Below, piece after piece: positions 5,622 to 46,896 of a DNA stretch of 64,000 nucleotides. Within the stretch, counting starts at the first letter, position 1. Each line of letters opens with the position of its first letter. The position numbers and the translations under genes are program-made. The notes below the pieces were generated by a model. The model was not told the DNA's origin, made no database searches, and saw only the letters and a program-made list of their open reading frames with translations. The stretch comes from Raja brachyura (taxonomy: Eukaryota). The DNA is taken from assembly GCA_963514005.1 (NCBI GenBank), contig OY740820.1, forward strand, positions 23,932,001 to 23,996,000, given 5' to 3'.

Positions 5622-6197
5622 TTTTGGATTTGCATCTGCTGCTTGAAGACTTGTTGATACAATTGTCCCGATAAACTGCGTGTCTTGCTCTCTGCCCGTA
5701 CAGTGTCATGTTGAGGGGAATTAGACAATGATGGCACAGGGGGAATGGCTACTTGGGTTGTGTTCCAGGCAGGGATCAGTGCATAGAACCCCACCAAATA
5801 AGTTATCAGGGGGCTAACGAACGATACCGCAAGGGAAAATATCTGAATATAAAACGAGTAACATTTCTCCTCCCCAAACATCAGTGGAAGACAAACCTGA
5901 CCTCCCTCTATTGAATATTCATTGCAGTTTGATTACAGCCCCCTGCAGCAAACAGTGGAGATGTGGAAGTAGACAGAGACAAATGGCACACTTGTACGGC
6001 GACAACCACATTGAAACCATGCTTAGCCTGAAGCAGTCACACCGCCTAACACCAGCCAAAGCATGAATACTAATTAGCAGACAGAGCTGACAAGCTAATT
6101 CCCCTCAACATGACACTGTACGGGCAGAGAGTGAGACACGCAGTTTATCGGGACAATTGTATCAACAACTCTTCAAGCAGCAGAAGCAAATCCAAAA
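5622..6197. repeat. 103-bp inverted repeat (arms 5622-5724 and 6095-6197)
   Basis: Arms are reverse complements with 4 mismatches by manual alignment; 370-bp spacer. Confidence 0.92.
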
Positions 6198-7894: not shown

Positions 7895-9152
7895 CATATA
7901 ACCATATAACAACTACAGCACGGAAACAGGCCTTCTCGGCCCTTCCAGTCCGTTCCGACCATTTATTTTCCCCTAGTCCCATCTACCTGCACTCAGACCA
8001 TACCCCTCCATTCCCTTTCCGTCCATATACCTATCCACTTTACTTTTAAACGTTAAAATCGATCCTGCCTCCACCACTTCTGCAGGAAGATCATTCCACA
8101 CAGCCACCACTCTCTGAGTAAAGAAGTTCCCCCTCATGTTACCCCTAAACCTCTGTCCCTTAATTCTCATGTCATGCCCTCTTGTTTAAATCTTCCCTAC
8201 CCTCAATGGGAAAAGCTTATCCACGTCAACTCTCTCTATCCCTTTCATCATTTTAAAGACCTTAATCAAGTCCCCCCCTTAACCTTCTGCGCTCCAAAGA
8301 ATAAAGACCTAACTTGTTCAACCTTTCTCTTAGTTGCTTAGTTGCTGGAACCCAGGCAACATTCTAGTAAACCTCCTCTGTACTCTCTCTATTTTGTTGA
8401 CTTCCTATAATTAGGCGACCAAAATTGTACACCATACTCTAGAATTGGTCTCACCAATGCCTTGTACAATTTTAACATTACTTCCCTACTCCTATATTCA
8501 ATGCTCTGATTTATAAAGGCCAGCACACCAAAAGCTTTCTTTACCACCCTATCTACATGCGATTCCACCTTCAGGGAACTATGCACACTTATTCCTAGAT
8601 CCCTCTGTTCCACAGCATTCCTCAATTCCCTACCATTTATCATGTACGTCCTATTTTGATTTGTCCTGCCAAGATGTAGCACCTCACACTTATCAGCATT
8701 AAACTCCATCTACCATCTTTCAGCCCACTCTTCCAAATGGCCCAAATCTCTCTGTAGACTTTGAAAATCTACTTCATTATCCACAGCACCACCTATCTTA
8801 GTATCATCTGCATACTTACTTATCCAATTTTCCACCCCATCATCTAGATCATTGATGTACATGACAAACAACAGTGGACCCAACACAGATCCCTGAGGCA
8901 CCCCACTGGTCACCGGCTTCCAACCTGACAAACAGCCATCCACCATTACTCTCTGGCATCTCCCATTCAGCCACTGTTGAATCCATCTTGCTACTCCGCC
9001 ATTAACACCAAAAGATTGAACCTTCTTAACCAACCTTCCATGGGGAACCTTGTCAAAGGCCTTACTGAAATCCATATAGACAACATCCACTGCTTTACCC
9101 TCATCAATTTCCCTTGTAACTTCTTCAAAAAATTCAAGAAGGTTTGTTAAAC
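7895..9152 (-). mobile_element. CR1-clade LINE (HER1-like), 5'-truncated RT and 3' tail
   Basis: DVVYMDFSKAFDKVPH, SGVPQGSVLGPLLF, SKYADDTK; premature TAG at 8712-8710; frameshift near 8400; (GTTATATG)n tail. Confidence 0.92.
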
Positions 9153-10274
9153 AAATCGTCCCCTTAATTCTTTCTCTACTTAAAATGTGTTGATTTATAA
9201 GCTTTTTCTGTTCTGGTTAAAGATGAATGAATGCTGGACATTTAATTTTCTCTTCATTGTTGCTGCCTGACTACTGAGTATATTGTACATTGAAAACGTA
9301 CCTTTTGACATCAACATTAGTTTGATAATTTTGTCCACTGTACCTTTAACACTGTTTCAGGATATCTAAAAGTACTTTACAACTTTGAAGGTGTAATCAG
9401 TGGTATGTGTTGTATACAGTTTTGTGGTGTAGGCACGGTTGTGATGTTGGAATCGCAGCTGCCTTGGGATGTTTCATTATATGTGAGGTGCCGCATAAAT
9501 ATACGTTGCTGTCAATGCTGTAGATTTCTGCCAGCTGATAAGGTTTATATATTGCTGAAATGAATAAATAAAATATTACTAAGGAATGTGAGATAAAACC
9601 AGCCAGAAATATAAAAACAGATGGTACGAATCCCTATAGATATTTGTAAATGAGCTAACGGATTTTTAATCCTATAGAAAACTAATATGGGGAATTAATT
9701 AACCAGTCTTTAACCATTATGGAAGATACAGGTAGTATATTAGAAACAGCTCTACATCAAGAATTGGCGAGCAGAGAAACTCAGGAAAATAACAATTACA
9801 TTAGTTCGTAGGCCCCATAGCCCCTGACACCCAATTACAAGGGTAGGTGGACTGAACAAATGGGCAAAGCTGTGGGCTGACAGGTCTCCAGGACCTATGT
9901 ACTTCATCCAAGGGTCTTGAAATGAGTGGCCAATGAGAACGTTGATGCCTGGTTTTAATTTTCCAAAATTCCCTAGATTTTTGAAAACTTAAGTGTAATA
10001 TTTTACAATTTAGTAATACTCCATTATTCAAAAAGAAGGAAGGTTAAAACGCATGAAACTGCAGGCCAGTTGGATTAACATCAATCAAAGAAAAAATTAC
10101 AAGCTGTTATTATTGATGTTAAAACAGTGCACTATGAAAATTAATCAGGCAAAGACCATAGGGCTTTCGGAAAGCTTTCTAGTTAAATCAAATTATTGGA
10201 TTTCTCTGAAGAAGTAACAAGTTCTCTGAATTGGGGGAAGGGGGTGGCGCGCTGTATTATAAACTTTTGGGAGA

Positions 10275-10555
10275 TATAGCGCAGAAACACACCCACGGAA
10301 TCTGCACCTACCAACACATCACCGCATACACTTGCACTATCCTACACAATAAGGACAATTTACCTTTTTTTTAACCAAAGTCGATTAACATACAATCCTG
10401 TACGTTTTTGGAGTGTGGGAGGAAACCAGAGAAAACCCACGCAGTCACATAGAGAACACACAAACTCCATACAGACAGCACCTGTAGTCAGGATTGAAAC
10501 CAGGTCTCTGGATCCGTAAGGTAACATTTCTTCTGTTGCACCACCATGCCACCTT
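10275..10555 (-). mobile_element. tRNA-derived V-SINE (HE1-like)
   Basis: tRNA-like head followed by the V-domain GGAGTTTG..TGTTCTC...GGTTTCCTCCCAC; partial copies at ~11.9-12.06 kb, ~15.7 kb and ~21.0-21.15 kb. Confidence 0.75.
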
Positions 10556-11308
10556 AATTTATACTTAGTTTTACGTATAATTTGTGTCAAAAAAAATAAT
10601 AAAGTGTTTTTAGTTCAAGGTCATGGAACTAACCATGGGGAGGTTTTTGCTTGGAAAACAGGAAGGCTCAAATGGATCCCTTTCTAGTTACAAAATATAA
10701 TGAACTTATTAAGCAAGGAGATGAAAAGCTGCTACAGGTTAGGGTTAGGGTTGGAGATGAGATTTACAACCAGATCAGCCATGATCTTATTGAACGGCAG
10801 AGCAGGCTTCAGAGGCCGAGGGCTAGTGCTGCTCTTCATCTGAAGGCTCAAATGTTCATGTGTAGCTAAAGCAACATAACATCCTCACACCTCAAACTCC
10901 CACACTCTACAGCTCAAACCATGCACTCCACACGCTGCCCACATGCGCAACATCAGATTCACACTTTCATCAGAGAATAGGCAGCAGATTAAAGCTTACA
11001 AGAAGCACTGCTTTTTTTCTGCCACTCAGATTAGAATTCCTGTCCCGTGAAGGAAATACCTCCACCCTGAGATAAACTGCAGCCACGTCTTCTTTGTATC
11101 TATCATATCTGCAGATTTTGGATAAACCCTAGTTCTCCAGGGACACCTTCCCTCTGCTCACTGCTTCTCCCAGGCACTCTGCCTTTCTGCACACGTCTCC
11201 TTGCCTCTCTCTTCTCACGAAGGCAACATGCTGTATTGCATGTTTCATGAATCTAAGGAACTCATATCCACAGGCTAATAGAAGAGAATGAAGCTACACT
11301 TGCCAACG

Positions 11309-11322
11309 GTTTCCATGGTAAC
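11309..11322. promoter_or_regulatory. RFX X-box (intronic)
   Basis: GTTTCCATGGTAAC, near-perfect palindromic X-box in non-repeat sequence. Confidence 0.55.
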
Positions 11323-11731
11323 CTTCAGTCAGTGAGGGAACTCAAATAGGGGGTGGGGTGGAGCCTGTCACATCCTGCCAACTGACATTGCTCTTCTTTT
11401 GTTTAAGCAAGGAGACAGCTCATGTAGAATTGCCTCTGCAACAGCTGGAAAACAGCACGGTTTACATACACATCTACCACAAAACACCCTTCCCCAGTCC
11501 CGCATCCTCCTCTAGCCTCATCCCCACATCCAGCACCCTCCTCCACTGCATCTGAGGCATGGTGGTATAGTCGTTCTATCACTGGTATAGGAGCCAGTGT
11601 TCTGGGTCCAAAAAACATGGGCACCAGTTTGAAACCCACCTTGACCATCAGGACGTTTACATTCAAATAAAAAGCAATTAGAAAATTCTAATATGTATAA
11701 ATTACTTAGTCTCAGTGAAATAAGAAAAAAA

Positions 11732-11762
<31 letters not shown>

Positions 11763-11779
11763 GAGACACACACACACAC
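11732..11779. repeat. (GA)n(CA)n compound microsatellite
   Basis: Direct reading. Confidence 0.95.
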
Positions 11780-13774
11780 CAGTGAGAGACGAAAATAAAG
11801 AAAGTGTGGAAGCAGGCCCTTTGGTCCACTGAGTCCGCAGCAACCAGAAACCGCTCATTACATTAATCCAACATTAAGATGATTTTTTTTATTTTCCCTA
11901 CATTCTCATCGATTATCTCAGAATCTGCGGTCACCTGCAATTTATAATGGCCAATAAATCTGCTAATTCATGCGTCTTTAGGGTGTGGGTTTTCTCCGAG
12001 TCCACTGGTTTCCTCCCACGCCCCAAAGACTTGTGGGTTGTAGGTTAATTAGCCACTGTGGATTATGGAAAACAAATCTGGTAGGAAAGGTGCAATAACT
12101 GTCCTTACCAGCAGTGCCACATCCTCCAGCTCCATTCTCCCCTCACAGCCCAACCACACCTCCACACCAACCCCAGAGACCACAAGCATCACGACCTGCC
12201 CAGACGTTGCAGCAAAAAACAGCATGTTTTTTCCCTTAAATATTGGGAGACTGAGCCATTCCCCTTTGGAACCTTCAACCATCACTGTTCCTGTTCTCAC
12301 CAACACCATCTCCTTCTCTGAGATCCACCAGTAACCGGTTCTCAACCAAAGTGTTTGCCACCAGATATCATTCTAAGACAGCACCAAAGCACCTTTCATG
12401 GTCACCAATACGACCACAATTCCACCCCAGTGTTGCTGCCAGACTCCACCACTGCTGAAACTCTTTCCCATACCTTTATCTAAACTTTGTTTCTGGCCTT
12501 ACATAAATTTGAAGCCAACCAAAGATCTGTGTCCTTGCCTCAAGTTTGTTCACCCATCACACGTGCTATGTGTCTAAAGTACAACAATTCTCATCTTTGT
12601 TTTATAATCGTTTCATGATATCACCTCTGCTGCCCTCAGTAACCACACAGCCCAAAAACTGCAAAATCTCCTTGTTCTTCTAATTTGGGTTTGCTCATCC
12701 CACGACAGCTGTGTTCTCAGTTGCCAAGGCAGTAAGGTGTGGAATTCCTCTCTGCCTTTCCCCTCCTTTAAAATGCTACAAAAAAAACTGCCTCTGGTCT
12801 GTCCTAGCAATCCTTTATATGACAGCATCAATTTTCCTTTGCTAAAACTCCTTGGAAGCATTTCAATTCTTTTAATGTACCAAAGTAACCTCTTTTAATT
12901 CATCTCATGAGATGCTGGGTTGCTGGCAAGGCCAGGATTTATGGCCATCCGTAATGCCCCACCAGCTGCCTTCTTGAACCATTACTTTATTGTATAAGCA
13001 TTTCCTTAGCAATGTAGGGCAGGGAGTTGCAGGACTCACACCCTGGGACGGTGCAAACAAGTCTCATGAATGATGGTGTGTGACTTGGAGAAGGTGATGC
13101 TCCATTACACCTGCAGTCTTTGTTCATCTAGTTGGTGGAGGCTGGAGGCTGGGGAAATATTGTCGGAGAAACACTAGTTGGTTGTTCATTTTGAAAATAA
13201 ATTGGTCGGGCTTGAAGACAATAATGTCAGGCCCAGGAGTCAGCTCAGAACATACAAAAAGCAGACGAGTTGAACATAACAAACTGATCAAGTATAAAAG
13301 GCCAAATACTGCAAGAAAGAAAACTGGGTGATCATTTTCCAAGCAGTGTCAATATGAAGGATCTTGGGTATGATCAGTCATTTGAAGCAGTCTAAGTAAA
13401 CTAGAGAATGCATTAACTTTTTAATATTGTAAACTGAGTACTGTGTTGGATCTGTATAAATAATGGCCACTGGTGGCAAGCCCTCAGAGCAGTGCTGTTC
13501 CCAGAGGATTAGTTCTGGTTAGACAACGGTACCTCCCCAGTAGAAGGCAGGAGAGTGACAGGGCCCCATACATAGTGCGTGAAAGTTGGACAAGAGGAAC
13601 TGGGTGAAACCAGACAGGGGCTAACAGGTCAGATGGCTCAGTTTCACAAGGAATGAGTACTATTAAACTGCATCTTGAAACCACACGAAAATTAGATCAA
13701 TTTAATTGCCTCCTGCAGAAACCTGTTACATTAAGTCTTGGAGTCCCTTTGGCTCACCAGAATACACTAACTAC

Positions 13775-15587
13775 CTTGACTCCATCCTATCCCCCTTTGT
13801 TAAATCCCTCCCCACCTATGTTCAAGACACCTCAGGCACTCTCCGTCGGCTCCGCACATTCCGTTGTCCAGGCCCCCATCCTCTCATCTTCACCATGGAC
13901 GTCCAGTCACTATACACCTGCATCCCCCACCAGGATGGTCTCAAAGCCCTCCGGTACTTCCTCGACCAGAGGAGCAACCCATACCCATCCACTGACACCC
14001 TCCTCCGTCTAGCGGAGTTGGTCCTTACCCTCAACAACTTCTCTTTTGACTCCTCCCATTTCCTCCAAACACAAGGCGTAGCTATGGGCACACGCATGGG
14101 CCCTACCTACGCCTGCCTCTTTGTCGGGCACGTCGAACAATCTTTGTTCTCGGCGTACCAGGGCCCCACCCCCGACCTTTACCTCCGTTACATTGACGAC
14201 TGCTTTGGTATCACCTCCTGCACCCACGCACAACTGACTGACTTCATCCATTTCACCACCAACTTCCATCCGGCACTTAAAAATACGTGGACCATTTCCG
14301 ACATTTCCCCTACCATTCCTTGACCTCACCATCTCTATTGCAGGTGATACACTCCTGACTGACATCCACTACAAACCAACTGACTCCCACAGCTACCTGG
14401 ACTACTCTTCCTCCCACCCTGCTTCCTGTAAGGACTCCATCCCCTATTCCCAATTCCTCCGTCTACGCCGCATCTGCTCCCAGGATGACGTGTTCCACAC
14501 CAGGTCATCACAAATGTCCTTGTTCTTCAGAGAACGGGGTTTCCCCTCCCCCACTATAGATGAGGCTCGCACCAGGGTCTCCTCCATACCCCGCAACACT
14601 GCCCTCTCTCCCCATTCCCCCACTCACAACAAGGGCCGAGTCCCCCTGGTCCTCACCTTTCACCCCACCAGCCAGCGCATACAACAGATAGTCCTCCGCC
14701 AGTTTCGCCACCTCCAACGTGACCCCTCCACTCGCCACATCTTCCCATCTCCCCCCCTGTCTGCCTTCCGCAAAGACCGCTCCCTCCGCAACTCCCTTGT
14801 CAATTCTTCCCTTCCCTCCTGCTCCTCTCCTTCCCCAGGCACTTTCCCTTGCAACCGCAAGAGATGCTACACTTGTCCCTTCACCTCCCCCATCCACTCC
14901 TTTCAGGGACCCAAGCAGTCATTCCAAGTCCGACAGAGGTTCACCTGCACCTCCTCCAACCTCATCTACTGCATCCGTTGCTCCAGATGCCAGCTGATCT
15001 ACATCGGTGAGACAAAGCGGAGGCTGGGCGATCGTTTCGCCGAACACCTCCGCTCGGTCCGCAATAACCAACCCGACCTCCCGGTGGCTCAGCAATTCAA
15101 CCCCCCCTCCCATTCCGTATCCGACCTCTCGGTCCTGGGCCTCCTCCACAGCCAGAGTGAGCAACACCGCAAGTTGGAGGAACAGCACCTCATATTCCGC
15201 TTGGGGAGTCTGCATCCTCTGGGCTTAAACATTGAATTTTCTCAATTCTGTTAACCCAGACTGCCCCCTCCCCTCCCCACCTCTCCCTCAGCCCTCGGGC
15301 CCTGACATTCCTTCTCCATCTCCCACCCCCCCCCCCCACCCCAGTCGCACTAGCTTCTCATTTTCACACCACAAACTGCTTACAATGGCCTGCTTCCTTT
15401 ATCATCAATACTTTTTTGCATATCTTTCATTCATTGTTTTTTATCTCTCCACCTCACTGTTTATATCTCTCGTTTCCCTGATCCCTGACCAGTCTGAAGA
15501 AGGGTCTCGACCCGAAACGTCGCCTATCTCCTTCGCTCCTTAGATGCTGCTGCACCCGCTGAGTTTCTCCAGCTTTTTGTGTAACCC
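13775..15587 (+). mobile_element. Penelope-like retroelement (Neptune-type), 5'-truncated: RT, Cys linker, GIY-YIG endonuclease and 3' pLTR
   Basis: RT motifs TMDVQSLYT, QGVAMGTRMGP, YLRYIDDCFG; CNRKRCYTC linker; GIY-YIG NLIYCIRC..IYIGETKRRLGDRFAEH. One +1 frameshift in the C-run 14307-14310. 12-bp TSD TACACTAACTAC (13763-13774, 15588-15599). Confidence 0.93.
15494..15521 (+). ncRNA. Minimal type I hammerhead-ribozyme-like core in the Penelope pLTR
   Basis: CTGAAGA-A-GGGTC-TC-GACCC-GAAA-CGTC: conserved CUGANGA and GAAA boxes, 5-bp stem II, palindromic ACGU in place of stem III, GUC cleavage triplet. Penelope pLTRs are known to carry minimal hammerheads. Confidence 0.65.
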
Positions 15588-17999
15588 TACACTAACTACA
15601 CCTCTATTTACATGAATTCCTTTTTATTCTTCCCACATTCACATCGTATTCTTCTAAATGGTCAATTAATCTAACAACCAACATGACATTGGCATGTTGG
15701 AAGAAACCAGAGCACCCAAAGGAAACCCACGTGTAAATTTCACACAGACAGCACCAGAGATCAGAAATGAGCCAAGAGTTGGAAGAACTGCGTCACCCCG
15801 AATACTTGAATAACTGTTCTTCATTCAAGCCAAAGTACAATTATGCCCGGAAAAATTGCAAAGGCTAGATATACAATCAAATACTTTTAAAACAACAGCC
15901 AGAACTTATGCTATACTAATCTATTCCAAATGTAAAGCTTTATTATGATTTTTGCTTTATCTAATCTGTCGTAAAAAAAATTTAAGAAAAAAATAAGCAC
16001 ACAACTTACAAAAGATAATGCAAATTCATCTAATTCGCCATTAATACACAATTCTACCAAGGATGCAAAACTTTGTAAAGTTCCCCTGTTGAGAGCATCT
16101 GAAATGAAATGGTCCACTTGCTAGCATTGTTATTCTGCAAAGTGTTTCTTTTTCAGACCAATTTAAACTTTTCTTTTCCGGAGCTTTCTTTGTATTTGAA
16201 ACAAAAGTATGTATCCGTCAGCGTGGAGAACAGAGCGGGTTGCATAGCTCGCTACCTGCCTGCCTGCCCGCCTGCCTGCCTGCCGCTGCTGCTGGGAATG
16301 CACACTATTTGGCAGAACCATGCTCAATACCTGAATGTGCTGCTCTACACTGCAATCACCTGACTACCTGCCCACCAGTCCATCAAGTCTATGACTACCC
16401 TACCCACTTGCAGGAGGGGTAATTACAGCAACCAGAATGTAGAAGACATTCACCACTATGTTCCCTTGATTAGAAGACTTTAGTTGTGAGGAGAATTGGA
16501 TAGGCTGGGTTTGTTTTCCCTGGAGCTGAGATATGACCCAATAGAGGTCTTTAAAATTATAAGAGACATAGATAATCTATTTTGCACAATAAACATATCA
16601 ATAACAAAACGGCATAGGTTTAAGGTGAGAAGAAGAGGTTTTCAGGGAATTTAGGGGACACACAGACAGAGTCATTGATATCTGGAGCCCATTGCCAGAA
16701 GAGGTGGTGGAATTAATTATTGTCACTATGTTTAATGTACATCTAGACAGCCACTTATATCCTATACAGGGTACAGACCGAATGTGGGCAGATGGGATTA
16801 GAAAAGTTGGCATGGTCTTGACGAGCTGAGCTGAAGAGCGTGTTTCTGTGCAGCTTGACTCAATGACTCCCTGACTGATGTTAACTTCACCCATGATATG
16901 TTCATGCAGAATCACAGCATGATTGCAGCATACAGGAGAACACTGACCCAGAGAATTCACACCTGCTCTTTGCCTGAGCAACTCTCTTGTTCCACACATC
17001 TCCCTTCTCACTCGGCAGATATTTCTCCACCACGTTTTATCTGATCTCTCTTGAAGTCCACACTCAAACCTATGGGGCAATTTCAACCATACATCACATA
17101 AAACAGTTTTTCATTATGTCGTTCTTAATTCTTTCTCCCTTTTCTTTCACCCTAGTGAACAGCCACTATCCACTAGGTGTCCAAACCCCTCATCATTTTA
17201 TGCATTCCTTTCAACCTTCTCTTTTCTAAAAAAAACAGCTTCTTTAACCTATTTGTGTAACTGCAGCCCCTCATCCTAGTAACTATCCTCACAAGATCTT
17301 TTCTGAATCCTCCCTCATACCTTCACAATCTTCCCAAAAATCTACCAGAATATTCCATTTCATCTGGACCAGTGTTTAATAAAGGTTTATATTTGTGAGT
17401 AAGACTCCTGAGATATTCAGGGTAGTTATACCACAGTAACACGTTATCTCAATGTCTGACCTTCAGGCGAACCAATGGATTTGATTTCAGTTCTGATAGT
17501 GGTTCACTTTTGCTCTTCCAAACACTCTGATACAGTTCTCAAATCTTTCCCATTTCAAGCCTTCCAGTCCAGCAGGCATGTCTAATCCCATTACTAAAGC
17601 CCCAGTGGACACCACAGAGCTAATTACACCGAATACCCAGCACACACATTCAACCCGACCAGCCTATGCCAATGTTTATGCTCCACTGAAGAATCCTCCC
17701 CTCCAATGCTATCAGCATCAGTCTTTATCCCCTTAGCCATGAGTTTCCTATCTTGGTTAACTCTAAGGGTGAGAAAGATTGAGAAGATTGTTAGGGTGCT
17801 GACACAGCCGAGCTTGCCACCTGTCTACATTGAGCCCAGGGTCTGTTGTGCACCTGTTCAGTAAGATCTGGGCTGCGTGCCATCATGAAACAAATGTAGG
17901 ATGGAGTTGAATTTCTGCAGGCCAAATATGGGAAGGATGCCCCATTGTACATTGGAGTCAAAGAGTTTTACAAATCAAAAAACATATTTAATAGTAATT

Positions 18000-18480
18000 G
18001 ATGCTGCTCCATTTATTTCTCTTAATCAAGTGGCATGGTGAAAGTGCGTGTTTGTAAATTGAGGGAATGTTTACCACAATTTGGGGAGCAGCTCTTCAGC
18101 CACTGGAGGAGGTGTGGTGGGGTAGTGTTCTACTGGGGAGTAGTGGTCCCTTGCTTGTGTGTGCTCCTGAGATATGGTCTAAATGCAGCAGGCACTTCAA
18201 AGCACCTGAGAAATAACACCAACGCAGTCTGCGCAAAATTCTCTCTATGTCGCGAAGGATAAGTGCACTAACATCACCATCCTCTCCCAGGTTAACACTC
18301 TCAGCACTGAGATCTTAGTGACAGTCAGCTCTGATGGGCAGATCATGTTGTTTGTATACCTCACACTAGGCTCCTGAAGTAAGATACCTTATCACACCAA
18401 CCAATTACCTGTGGACAGTTGAAGATATTGAATAATGCTCACAAAACAGTTTCTACCCCAGCCATAACATAGTCTGTGGG
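18000..18480 (+). mobile_element. RTE (BovB-like) LINE remnant
   Basis: Degenerate HQRSLRKIL...TNITILSQ...QL*WADHVVC.P.TRLLK C-terminal RTE motif; boundaries approximate. Confidence 0.6.
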
Positions 18481-20143
18481 TCCTTCATTGGTTTCATCAG
18501 CAATCAGGATGTGGAGCGGATGTACACTCTCCTTCATCAGAAGACAAGGGATGCAGAGGGAGGAGACAGAGGGAGAATGCTGGACTGGGCAAAGTCGTGG
18601 GGAGGTTGTGAGAGCAAGAGAAGCAATGGGCTAAGGAATGCATGAGGGAAGAGTCTGAGAGACGACAAAAGCACACAGGATAAAAAGATGCAAGGTAGAC
18701 ACAAAGTGCTGAAGTAACTCAGCAGGACGGCAGCATCTCTGGAGTGAAGGAATGGGTGACGTTTCGGGTCGAGACCCTTCTTCAAACTGAAGAAACATGC
18801 CAAGAGAGATTGACAGATACTTAGTTATTAAGGGAATTCAGAGGTATACAATTAGTACAGGTAAGTGGCACTATCTAACTATGATCTAACTCATAATTGA
18901 GGTCGCCAGTCCATATGCAAGGCTGTTTAGAGTTAGCAAGCTCATGATTTTCCTTCAAACCATGAGAGGAGGAACATAGTGGGCACTGGCGTCAAAAACC
19001 GTCAGTGCAGCAGTCACACAGAAGAGAATCCAAAGGGGTATCGACACTGCGGTCTGCTCCAGCTAACTGCAAATCAACAGAGCTTAATTACACCAATGAT
19101 CTCTTATCAGGCAGGAGTTAAAATATAGCTCAGTAATCATAGCCCAGAGTTAACCAACAGAGCTGGGAAGCTGCCAGTGGAATTGAGAGGAAATGCATTT
19201 CATTTTAATTAAAAACAAAATCACAGGGCGGAGAGCCTCAATACATTGTCCCAGCTGCTGCATGCAGCTTAATCACAGTCGCAAAGGAATCTGACAGCAG
19301 AAGCATTTCTCCAGTCTCAGATGGGATACAGAATATATCAGAGCATAGAATAGGTTAGCAAAGGAACAGGTCCTGTGGCACATAATGTCCATGCAGAACA
19401 TGATGCCAGGTTAAACTCGTCTCCTGTGCCTTCACCCAATCCATATCCCTCCACCCCTGCATATCCCAAAGGCTCATACACACCTGGACATCATCTGCAA
19501 ACTTACTAACCAACCCATCTACATTATCATCCAAATAATTTCTATATATCACAAACAAAAGAGATTCTAGTACCAGTACATGTAAAAGGAAACTGCTGGT
19601 AGAACTCCTTGAGTCAATCAGCATCTGTGGAGGGAATTTAACAGACAACATTTCGTCAGGGATATTCTTCAGAAGAGCCTTGACCTGAAATGCTGCATCA
19701 GAATCTGTGGATAACACTAACTTATTACAATGAGACAAGGCATGCAGGTTAAAACATGTATGTGAATCACAGCATATGGAGCTCTGGGAATATAAAAGTG
19801 GAATATCTTCTTAATGGTAAAAAATATATATGCTTATTAAGACTAATTGTCTTCAATTGTAATCCTTTAAATGTCAGAGTTTGAAAGGCGACTTGATCAA
19901 GGTGGTGAAAAATTAAAATAATTTGCAGGACAAATACACATAAATCACTCCCCCTGGTAGGGAAGTCAGGAATTAGGAGACATCATTTGAAGATTATTAT
20001 TTGGCCATTCGGAAGGACATCTTGAAGCAGTTTTATGATTGGACAGAAACTTGGAATACTCTCCAAAAGGCTGTGGATCCTCAGACAAATGTGGCTTTGG
20101 AAATTAAAGCAGCTAACGGGACCAAGGGATATGAGATGGAGGA

Positions 20144-45727: not shown

Positions 45728-46285
45728 TCACAGCCGCCCAGAATACAACAGGCCTTCTGCAGAGATGCTATCTCCTAATCCCACAGTCCTGACTGGGTCA
45801 ATGCAAACCATCACCGGAGTGATGAAAAAGGAGATGTTTTCTCGATGCCATATGCCCACAGGGTTGGTCGGACTCAATGTCATTTTCTTTGCTTTCAATG
45901 TTTTGTCCATTTGTGACAGAACGAATTGCATGGGGGATTTGAGAACCACTTTAGTGGGATCGATGGTGTCAGTGCCACATGCTTGACTGCCAGCAACTCT
46001 TGCACCAGCTGCCACAGATGAGTTCTGGTTGCTCCAGTGACCGTTGATGACCGCTATCATGTGGTAGGTCAGGGTGTGAAAATGAATGCGCGTTAAATCT
46101 GACTCCTTGGTCTGATCTGTTTGCCCATACTCTTTAAGGAGCCAGAAGATGATATCACTGACCATTCCAACATCAGGGGCTCCATTCCAAAACTCCTGTG
46201 TGCTGTGAGGCCCTGAACCAGCTTGACTGATGAACAAGAGTTCCTGCTCATTCAGGCCAATCGAGTTCACAATAGTAAGAACCTG
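45728..46285 (-). CDS. ADPGK: ADPGK exon 7, last coding exon (alternative acceptor at 46282)
   Basis: CTCAG|CAG|GTT tandem acceptor; (Q)VLTIVNSIGLNEQELLF...TRIHFHTL...RTVGLGDSISAEGL, with the ribokinase-family NEQE and GxGD motifs; TGA at 45730-45728. Exons sum to 1479 nt = 492 aa. Confidence 0.96.
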   Translation of the reverse strand, partial: QVLTIVNSIGLNEQELLFISQAGSGPHSTQEFWNGAPDVGMVSDIIFWLLKEYGQTDQTKESDLTRIHFHTLTYHMIAVINGHWSNQNSSVAAGARVAGSQACGTDTIDPTKVVLKSPMQFVLSQMDKTLKAKKMTLSPTNPVGIWHRENISFFITPVMVCIDPVRTVGLGDSISAEGLLYSGRL

Positions 46286-46896
46286 CTGAGGAAAAGAAGA
46301 ATGGATCAGCTTGGAGATGAACTAACAGAATACCAAATACACTTAGATGATTACAACCCTTGGTAAAGGGGCGGACAGCAAACCAGCTGCCTGTCACACT
46401 GCTTCTAAATAAAACAATGGCCCAACTCACACGCCCTTGCCTCAAGTTGCAGCTGAGAACAGTATGCTAAATAGTATTCGAGACGACATCTCCTAGTCCT
46501 GGACTCAACACAGAGTCCAAGGGCGGTGACACAACGGCCTGAGGTTAGCGAGTGCGAGTTGGTACCAGATGTGGGCAGCTCCACAGATGGGTCAGAGAGA
46601 CACTGGAGGCCTATAGGATGGTCAATCCTGTCCATAGTTGGGAAGCACGAGAGACTGCATACAATGGTCTCTCATAGATGCCAGTGATTGACCAGATAAA
46701 AGGTAGCTGTGACACTGATTCAGCACCATAAACCTGCCTGGATTCAGTACGGGAATGGGATACTAACCCTCTCCCCTCATTACCTGTAAGGCAACAAGGA
46801 AACATTTATTGTTCCACTTCTAATCTTCGAGAAATGGAGACATTCCACCTCTGAGGAACCATCGACCTTCTCAGCACCTACCCCCAAAATAATTAC

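Follow-up and report, generated by a model that had tools for sequence, protein, structure and literature searches.

The 64-kb window, by which we mean the whole stretch of DNA analysed, contains on its forward strand a truncated copy of a Penelope-like retrotransposon that carries a candidate hammerhead ribozyme near its 3′ end. The copy and its flanks comprise the following features:

13763-13774, forward strand: left target-site duplication of 12 bp, the final 3 bases of which also fit the element
13775-15587, forward strand: 5′-truncated, probably Neptune-type Penelope-like retrotransposon copy, ~1.8 kb of a ~3.95-kb unit
13775-15254, forward strand: remnant of the RT-EN ORF, its frame shifted near 14306 by comparison with a natural copy that is intact
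14850-14876, forward strand: CX4CxxC linker finger, a Neptune/Nematis feature as defined in PMC8557442
14961-15008, forward strand: GIY-YIG core with two cysteines of the CCHH motif
15255-15587, forward strand: 3′ untranslated end, which in partial tandems is the 5′ pLTR
15588-15599, forward strand: right target-site duplication

This copy is dead and a solo end; as it is without an upstream pLTR, the ribozyme motif has no partner for pairing in cis. Its RT and GIY-YIG matches, which mark the host as a Penelope-like element, each fall slightly under the Pfam cut-offs. Around it, ~25 short 3′-end stubs of the same element group, drawn from several subfamilies and lying on both strands, are scattered between window positions 1551 and 62422, some of them head-to-head, and matches to the element tail number 251 in 664 kb. 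No host exon turned up close to the element copy when 86 frames of the minus strand were scanned with Pfam. Elsewhere on the minus strand of the window lie the C-terminal part of an ADP-dependent glucokinase at 45731-46321 (PF04587, E 3e-54), a GC-rich, signal-peptide-like frame at 39660-40043 that is probably a first exon, and a fragment of a LINE-type reverse transcriptase at 8713-9216 (PF00078, E 3e-20), which we take to be CR1-like. There is also an inverted repeat of 103 nt with arms at 5622-5724 and 6095-6197, which are 96% complementary and 370 nt apart.

A reading made from the sequence alone had described the host as a young Penelope retroelement, and this description was borne out. 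The 29 best-scoring other copies share 96-98.5% identity, a ranking by score that proves the existence of young copies rather than the mean age of the family, and one of eight long loci fetched (L070) retains an unbroken frame of 1203 codons; on these two grounds we consider the family to be young. The intact frame encodes a protein with DKG and YIDD in a single ORF, a CX4CxxC linker at residue 1070 and, at the C terminus, a GIY-YIG domain with CCHH. At ~1190 aa this ORF compares with 660-1000 aa for most of the homologues listed, and it includes a long Pro/Ser/His-rich stretch at residues ~170-470, ahead of the RT. The traits of EN+ Penelope-like elements (PLEs) are present in the family: a single ORF, the RT DKG, GIY-YIG with CCHH, partial tandems, inverted 5′ copies and an optional tail of 30-40 nt. 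Among the eight long loci, two are partial tandems (L069 and L073), in which the hammerhead motif, located on the sense strand of the pLTR, is doubled at a spacing of 3957 and 3938 nt, respectively, and three carry inverted upstream copies (L069, L071 and L074).

With regard to clade, a CX2-5CxxC linker finger is found in Neptune and Nematis, and Penelope/Poseidon elements are without it (PMC8557442), so the CX4CxxC linker, a finger common to 99 of the 101 scored homologues, rules out Penelope/Poseidon and narrows the choice to Neptune or Nematis. Five related loci, whose RT-EN shares 34-50% amino-acid identity with the family, carry the hammerhead motif printed for the Acropora digitifera Neptune element or a near copy of it, and placement of the family in Neptune is therefore likely on sequence grounds.

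The predicted ribozyme and the features overlapping it are arranged as follows:

15486-15497, forward strand: hot spot at which genomic copies have their 5′ junctions, holding 49 of the 65 mapped and peaking at 15490-15492, with a putative RNA start at A15491
15492-15493, forward strand: 5′ strand of stem I (2 nt)
15494-15500, forward strand: CUGANGA box (C3-A9), invariant in six subfamily majorities
15501, forward strand: extra nucleotide between A9 and G10.1, an A in 15 of 15 relatives
15502-15513, forward strand: stem II hairpin, with 5 bp and a 2-nt loop or 4 bp and a 4-nt loop, including G10.1-C11.1
15514-15521, forward strand: GAAA box, then the palindrome ACGU, which is expected to form stem III between molecules, and the GUC triplet, with the predicted cut after 15521 (PMC4209133)
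15522-15523, forward strand: 3′ strand of stem I (2 nt)
15496-15534, forward strand: predicted rival rod fold, in which the first box and the cut site are both base-paired

In the letters of the window, CTGAAGA (15494-15500) is followed by A15501, GGGTC (15502-15506), TC, GACCC (15509-15513), GAAA (15514-15517) and CGTC (15518-15521), with ACGT at 15517-15520 forming a palindrome and GTC the cleavage triplet. Past the motif, the element continues for 66 nt to its 3′ end. Both hammerhead boxes, the 5-bp stem II, the extra A after A9, the ACGU palindrome and the GUC triplet that had been proposed are thus all there. The accompanying caveat, that only about 2 bp of stem I are evident, also proved correct, at this locus and across all six subfamilies seen: here, stem I consists of the wobble U15493-G15522 and of G15492-C15523, followed by a mismatch.

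Judged by sequence, the motif fits the minimal type I hammerhead (min-HHR) published for metazoan PLEs, since the core boxes (CUGANGA-H and GAAA), the extra nucleotide, G10.1-C11.1, the palindromic 15.2-16.2 without a loop III and the NUH triplet of that consensus are all present, as are its pyrimidine-rich 5′ flank, its position on the pLTR sense strand and its occurrence mostly in solo truncated copies (PMC4209133). The motif class is already known from PLE pLTRs, having been described in Xena, Poseidon and Neptune elements with low activity as dimers (PMC4209133), and the motif itself is ordinary. What differs is stem I, which has two pairs with a wobble or U-A here, whereas published min-HHR stems, ranging from 2 to 6 bp, mostly have 3-5 bp and the 2-bp ones consist of G-C/C-G (PMC4209133). 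The A. digitifera Neptune hammerhead has the same architecture, with a stem I of 3 bp and a different stem II sequence (PMC4209133). Table S1 and Fig. S3 of that paper hold no chondrichthyan entries, and our literature search, of incomplete coverage, turned up no description of PLE hammerheads in chondrichthyans and none of a start site located three bases ahead of the core. The traits of a canonical type I hammerhead, namely a stem I of ~6 bp, loops making tertiary contacts and an Rfam hit, are absent at 15494-15521; comparison with hammerhead models, which had been suggested as a check, gave no match in an Rfam scan of 10000-20000 up to E 10.

Six matches to the hammerhead-core pattern occur in the window, where shuffles predict 0.02, but these are copies of one repeat and hence not independent events. 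Likewise, the 50,608 occurrences of the exact 28-mer in the 2.7-Gb genome (reversed control, 0) reflect repeat amplification and not selection; as a minimum of exact copies, this number compares with ~9,000 motifs reported for Xenopus (PMC4209133).

To evaluate conservation beyond this repeat, 80 loci were fetched purely by protein (RT) similarity, 26 of which had at least 250 nt past the ORF. The strict motif follows the ORF in sense in 12 of the 26 and in antisense in none, and among the remaining 14 a degenerate version occurs in two or three and one has the motif on its 5′ side. Eleven of the 12 motifs (one duplicate omitted) and four from 5′ pLTRs make up 15 related motifs, all of which have the extra A and G10.1-C11.1 and 13 of which have a stem I of at least 3 bp. 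Stem I comprises 10 distinct types that form 31 pairs versus 7.8 after shuffling, a value reached by none of 20,000 shuffles, and stem II forms 42 of 44 pairs versus 32.4 (P 5e-5), with the proviso that these shuffle P values overstate independence since several of the related motifs come from the same families. As both stems covary in relatives selected by RT, we regard the structure as real.

Within the genome, the anchor was present in 348 of 626 hits, of which 268 were sorted into six subfamilies. The CUGANGA and GAAA boxes are unchanged in all six majorities, so the conservation check across subfamilies that had been set for the claim did not refute it. Stem I has 2 bp throughout, and a longer one was never found among these majorities. 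Changes in stem II are confined to the loop or leave the pairing intact (U-A to U-G), and within the genome they are one-sided only, whereas N1.1 is A or G and position 17 is C or U, giving a GUU triplet in one subfamily. These differences are compatible with a hammerhead of the predicted form.

The role of hammerheads in PLEs is treated as an open question (PMC8557442, PMC11167929), and this family has left insertion ends in very large numbers, a natural archive in which the starts and ends of copies point to the RNA start and give exact boundaries for constructs in a cleavage test. An anchor 3′ of the cut occurs in 45,778 copies genome-wide, and 88 of its first 100 places together with 600 kb sampled by position yielded 89 young copies, the majority of them within the initial 4 Mb of a single contig. 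While 24 of these continue upstream, 65 have junctions, 49 of them at 15486-15497, with a peak at 15490-15492, and 12 at 15498-15531. The hot-spot junctions adjoin non-element DNA in 34 cases, with a target duplication in 15 of the 32 tested, and are head-to-head inversions in the other 15. Loose ends at 15490-15492 were likewise present in public contigs from two other runs. At the 3′ side, 64 of the 89 copies end near 15587 and 18 end ~35 nt further, and these two groups match the two start sites predicted from PMC11167929.

By eye, the base ahead of A15491 is G in 46 of 100 rows (P 1.6e-4), and among non-element junctions classified by script it is G in 10 of 22 (P 0.07); with A about as frequent and T depleted in the latter, this is no more than suggestive of a copied cap. 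The hot spot also fits YYANWYY, which we take to be the Initiator consensus. The pLTR of D. virilis Penelope contains an internal promoter together with an RGACGTGY element downstream (PMC2377424); only the ACGT core of that element has a match in the pLTR of the present family. In tandem copies the ORF ATG lies 135 nt past the cut.

At the predicted cut itself there is no pile-up of genomic 5′ junctions, with 1 of 65 falling within 15520-15524. A search aimed at junctions near the cut, which gathered 1,011 copies lacking the GAAA start, revealed no peak at 15522 either: the 29 loci inspected comprised 7 mutants and 22 true junctions, 2 of the latter at 15522, and in a tally by eye of 100 targeted rows, ~9 events at 15522 stood beside 5-10 for every position from 15516 to 15520 and 13-15 for 15524 and 15525. 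Thus, of the proposal that a chondrichthyan Neptune family carries this ribozyme, the motif, its pLTR site, the linker finger and the covariation stand, and the Neptune attribution stands indirectly, through the A. digitifera-type motif, but there is no sign of cutting. Since copies start just ahead of the ribozyme and end well beyond the cut, their ends argue for uncut RNA as the template.

These ends bear directly on the proposal that the motif routinely cuts in vivo as a tandem dimer, with unit-length and possibly circularised RNA as the main template (proposed in PMC4209133). Partial tandems do place two motifs on one transcript, every core position is intact, and a 61-nt tandem array on contig C2 (55272477-55272633) has a unit whose first base coincides with the predicted cut or adjoins it (three rows), although it is a single event. 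However, the 3′ ends of copies lie 66 or ~100 nt past the cut, their 5′ ends lie ahead of the motif, and the copies without the GAAA start form no peak, all of which makes routine cutting very unlikely for this family. Two inverted arrays at locus L031 (600-1060 and 2260-2720) repeat a 66-nt unit that corresponds to the 3′ end from G12 on and is without the first box; we rejected it as a cleavage product because the unit begins at G12 and not at the cut. Non-LTR retrozymes, whose preprint includes one chondrichthyan genome, are also short pLTR-derived sequences with a type I hammerhead (bioRxiv 10.64898/2026.07.22.740005). In contrast to these, the short copies that we examined occur as dispersed stubs or as inverted pairs, and the trait of retrozymes, a tandem series of units that all contain an entire hammerhead, was not seen among them, the copy at 13775-15587 being solo and both short tandem arrays seen being without the first box.

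A closer parallel is offered by PAc, a Poseidon element of Anolis carolinensis, which likewise has a hammerhead in its pLTR, two kinds of 3′ end separated by a tail and no ends at the cut, but belongs to the Penelope/Poseidon clade without a linker finger and has an ORF that begins inside the hammerhead (PMC11167929). Cutting by the PAc hammerhead required protein, insertion in vitro did not depend on the ribozyme, RNA-seq showed no ends at the cut, and two internal start sites define the tail (PMC11167929). For the present family, folding predictions on six sequences favour a rival rod by 4.3-5.7 kcal/mol. Together with the 2-bp stem I in every subfamily and the lack of a footprint of copy ends at the cut, this points to weak or conditional activity: self-cutting is likely to be weak or rare, and the predicted ribozyme of the family is probably active only under certain conditions.

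Alternatively, the ribozyme may be dead, given a stem I shorter and weaker than those of 13 of the 15 relatives and published 2-bp cases made of G-C/C-G. Under this explanation, the motif would be a hammerhead by descent that lost cutting in this lineage and was retained in another role, either that of an internal promoter or that of a signal bound by protein, which accommodates the short stem I, the preferred rod fold, the missing junction peak, the Initiator-like hot spot and the precedent of the D. virilis promoter (PMC2377424). Against it, the subfamily changes obey hammerhead rules, with a stem II wobble, a pairable N1.1 and an H at position 17, and stems I of 2 bp exist in print (PMC4209133), while the confinement of the RGACGTGY match to its ACGT core speaks against the promoter component. 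We therefore consider loss of cutting unlikely, albeit less so than routine cutting.

Based on these comparisons, we propose, with a probability of roughly 0.6, that the 28-mer represents a hammerhead of the minimal type I class within a young Neptune-type pLTR, likely located three bases past the RNA start; it is predicted to be off by default, with cleavage after GUC confined to dimers assisted by protein. In this model, an internal pLTR promoter would start the RNA at about A15491, and the element protein would prime reverse transcription internally at ~15587 or ~35 nt further on, in the tail. The main template would be uncut RNA; where the template started in the same pLTR, copying could run off its 5′ end after ~97 nt and so yield the short stubs and head-to-head pairs. 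Cleavage, if any, would require two motifs paired via ACGU and refolding by protein, by analogy with PAc of Anolis.

A more speculative extension, which we put forward tentatively and hold to be doubtful, is that the Neptune pLTR of this lineage starts a capped RNA three bases ahead of the core and thereby caps stem I at two pairs, so that a ribozyme in the off state would double as an internal promoter. Internal priming ~97 nt downstream could then make each pLTR a source of full-length 97-nt retrocopies that contain both a promoter and a priming site. These would amount to a SINE-like unit that bears a hammerhead, renews itself and numbers tens of thousands of copies.

The preferred model takes the fixed 5′ boundary as a transcription start. 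It could instead be a splice acceptor (pyrimidine tract, CTGAC, CAG) or the result of template switching at the near-palindrome CAGTCTG, but this appears even less probable than routine cutting. An acceptor-like sequence is present directly ahead of the motif, an intron of D. virilis ends at helix I (PMC4209133), one locus joins a donor-like site of the 5′ UTR directly to 15493, and 15 of the 49 hot-spot junctions are inverted pairs. However, the join of donor to 15493 occurs at a single locus genome-wide, none of the 30 copies inspected among the 83 without the donor is joined directly to 15493, and the 34 of 49 hot-spot junctions adjoining non-element DNA share no upstream exon, with target duplications in 15 of the 32 tested. 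We also rejected, as a main route, splicing that would excise the entire ORF like an intron, as it has one locus to its credit, which the junction hot spot explains equally well.

The donor-like sequence in question, CAAG/GTATG, lies at the pLTR-body junction of L069 and L073, where it overlaps the ORF ATG 164 nt past the inferred RNA start; its GT is kept in 1,351 copies and lost in 83. At locus L290 (contig C16, near 43.6728 Mb), the donor-like site is joined exactly to the acceptor-like site in both inverted arms.
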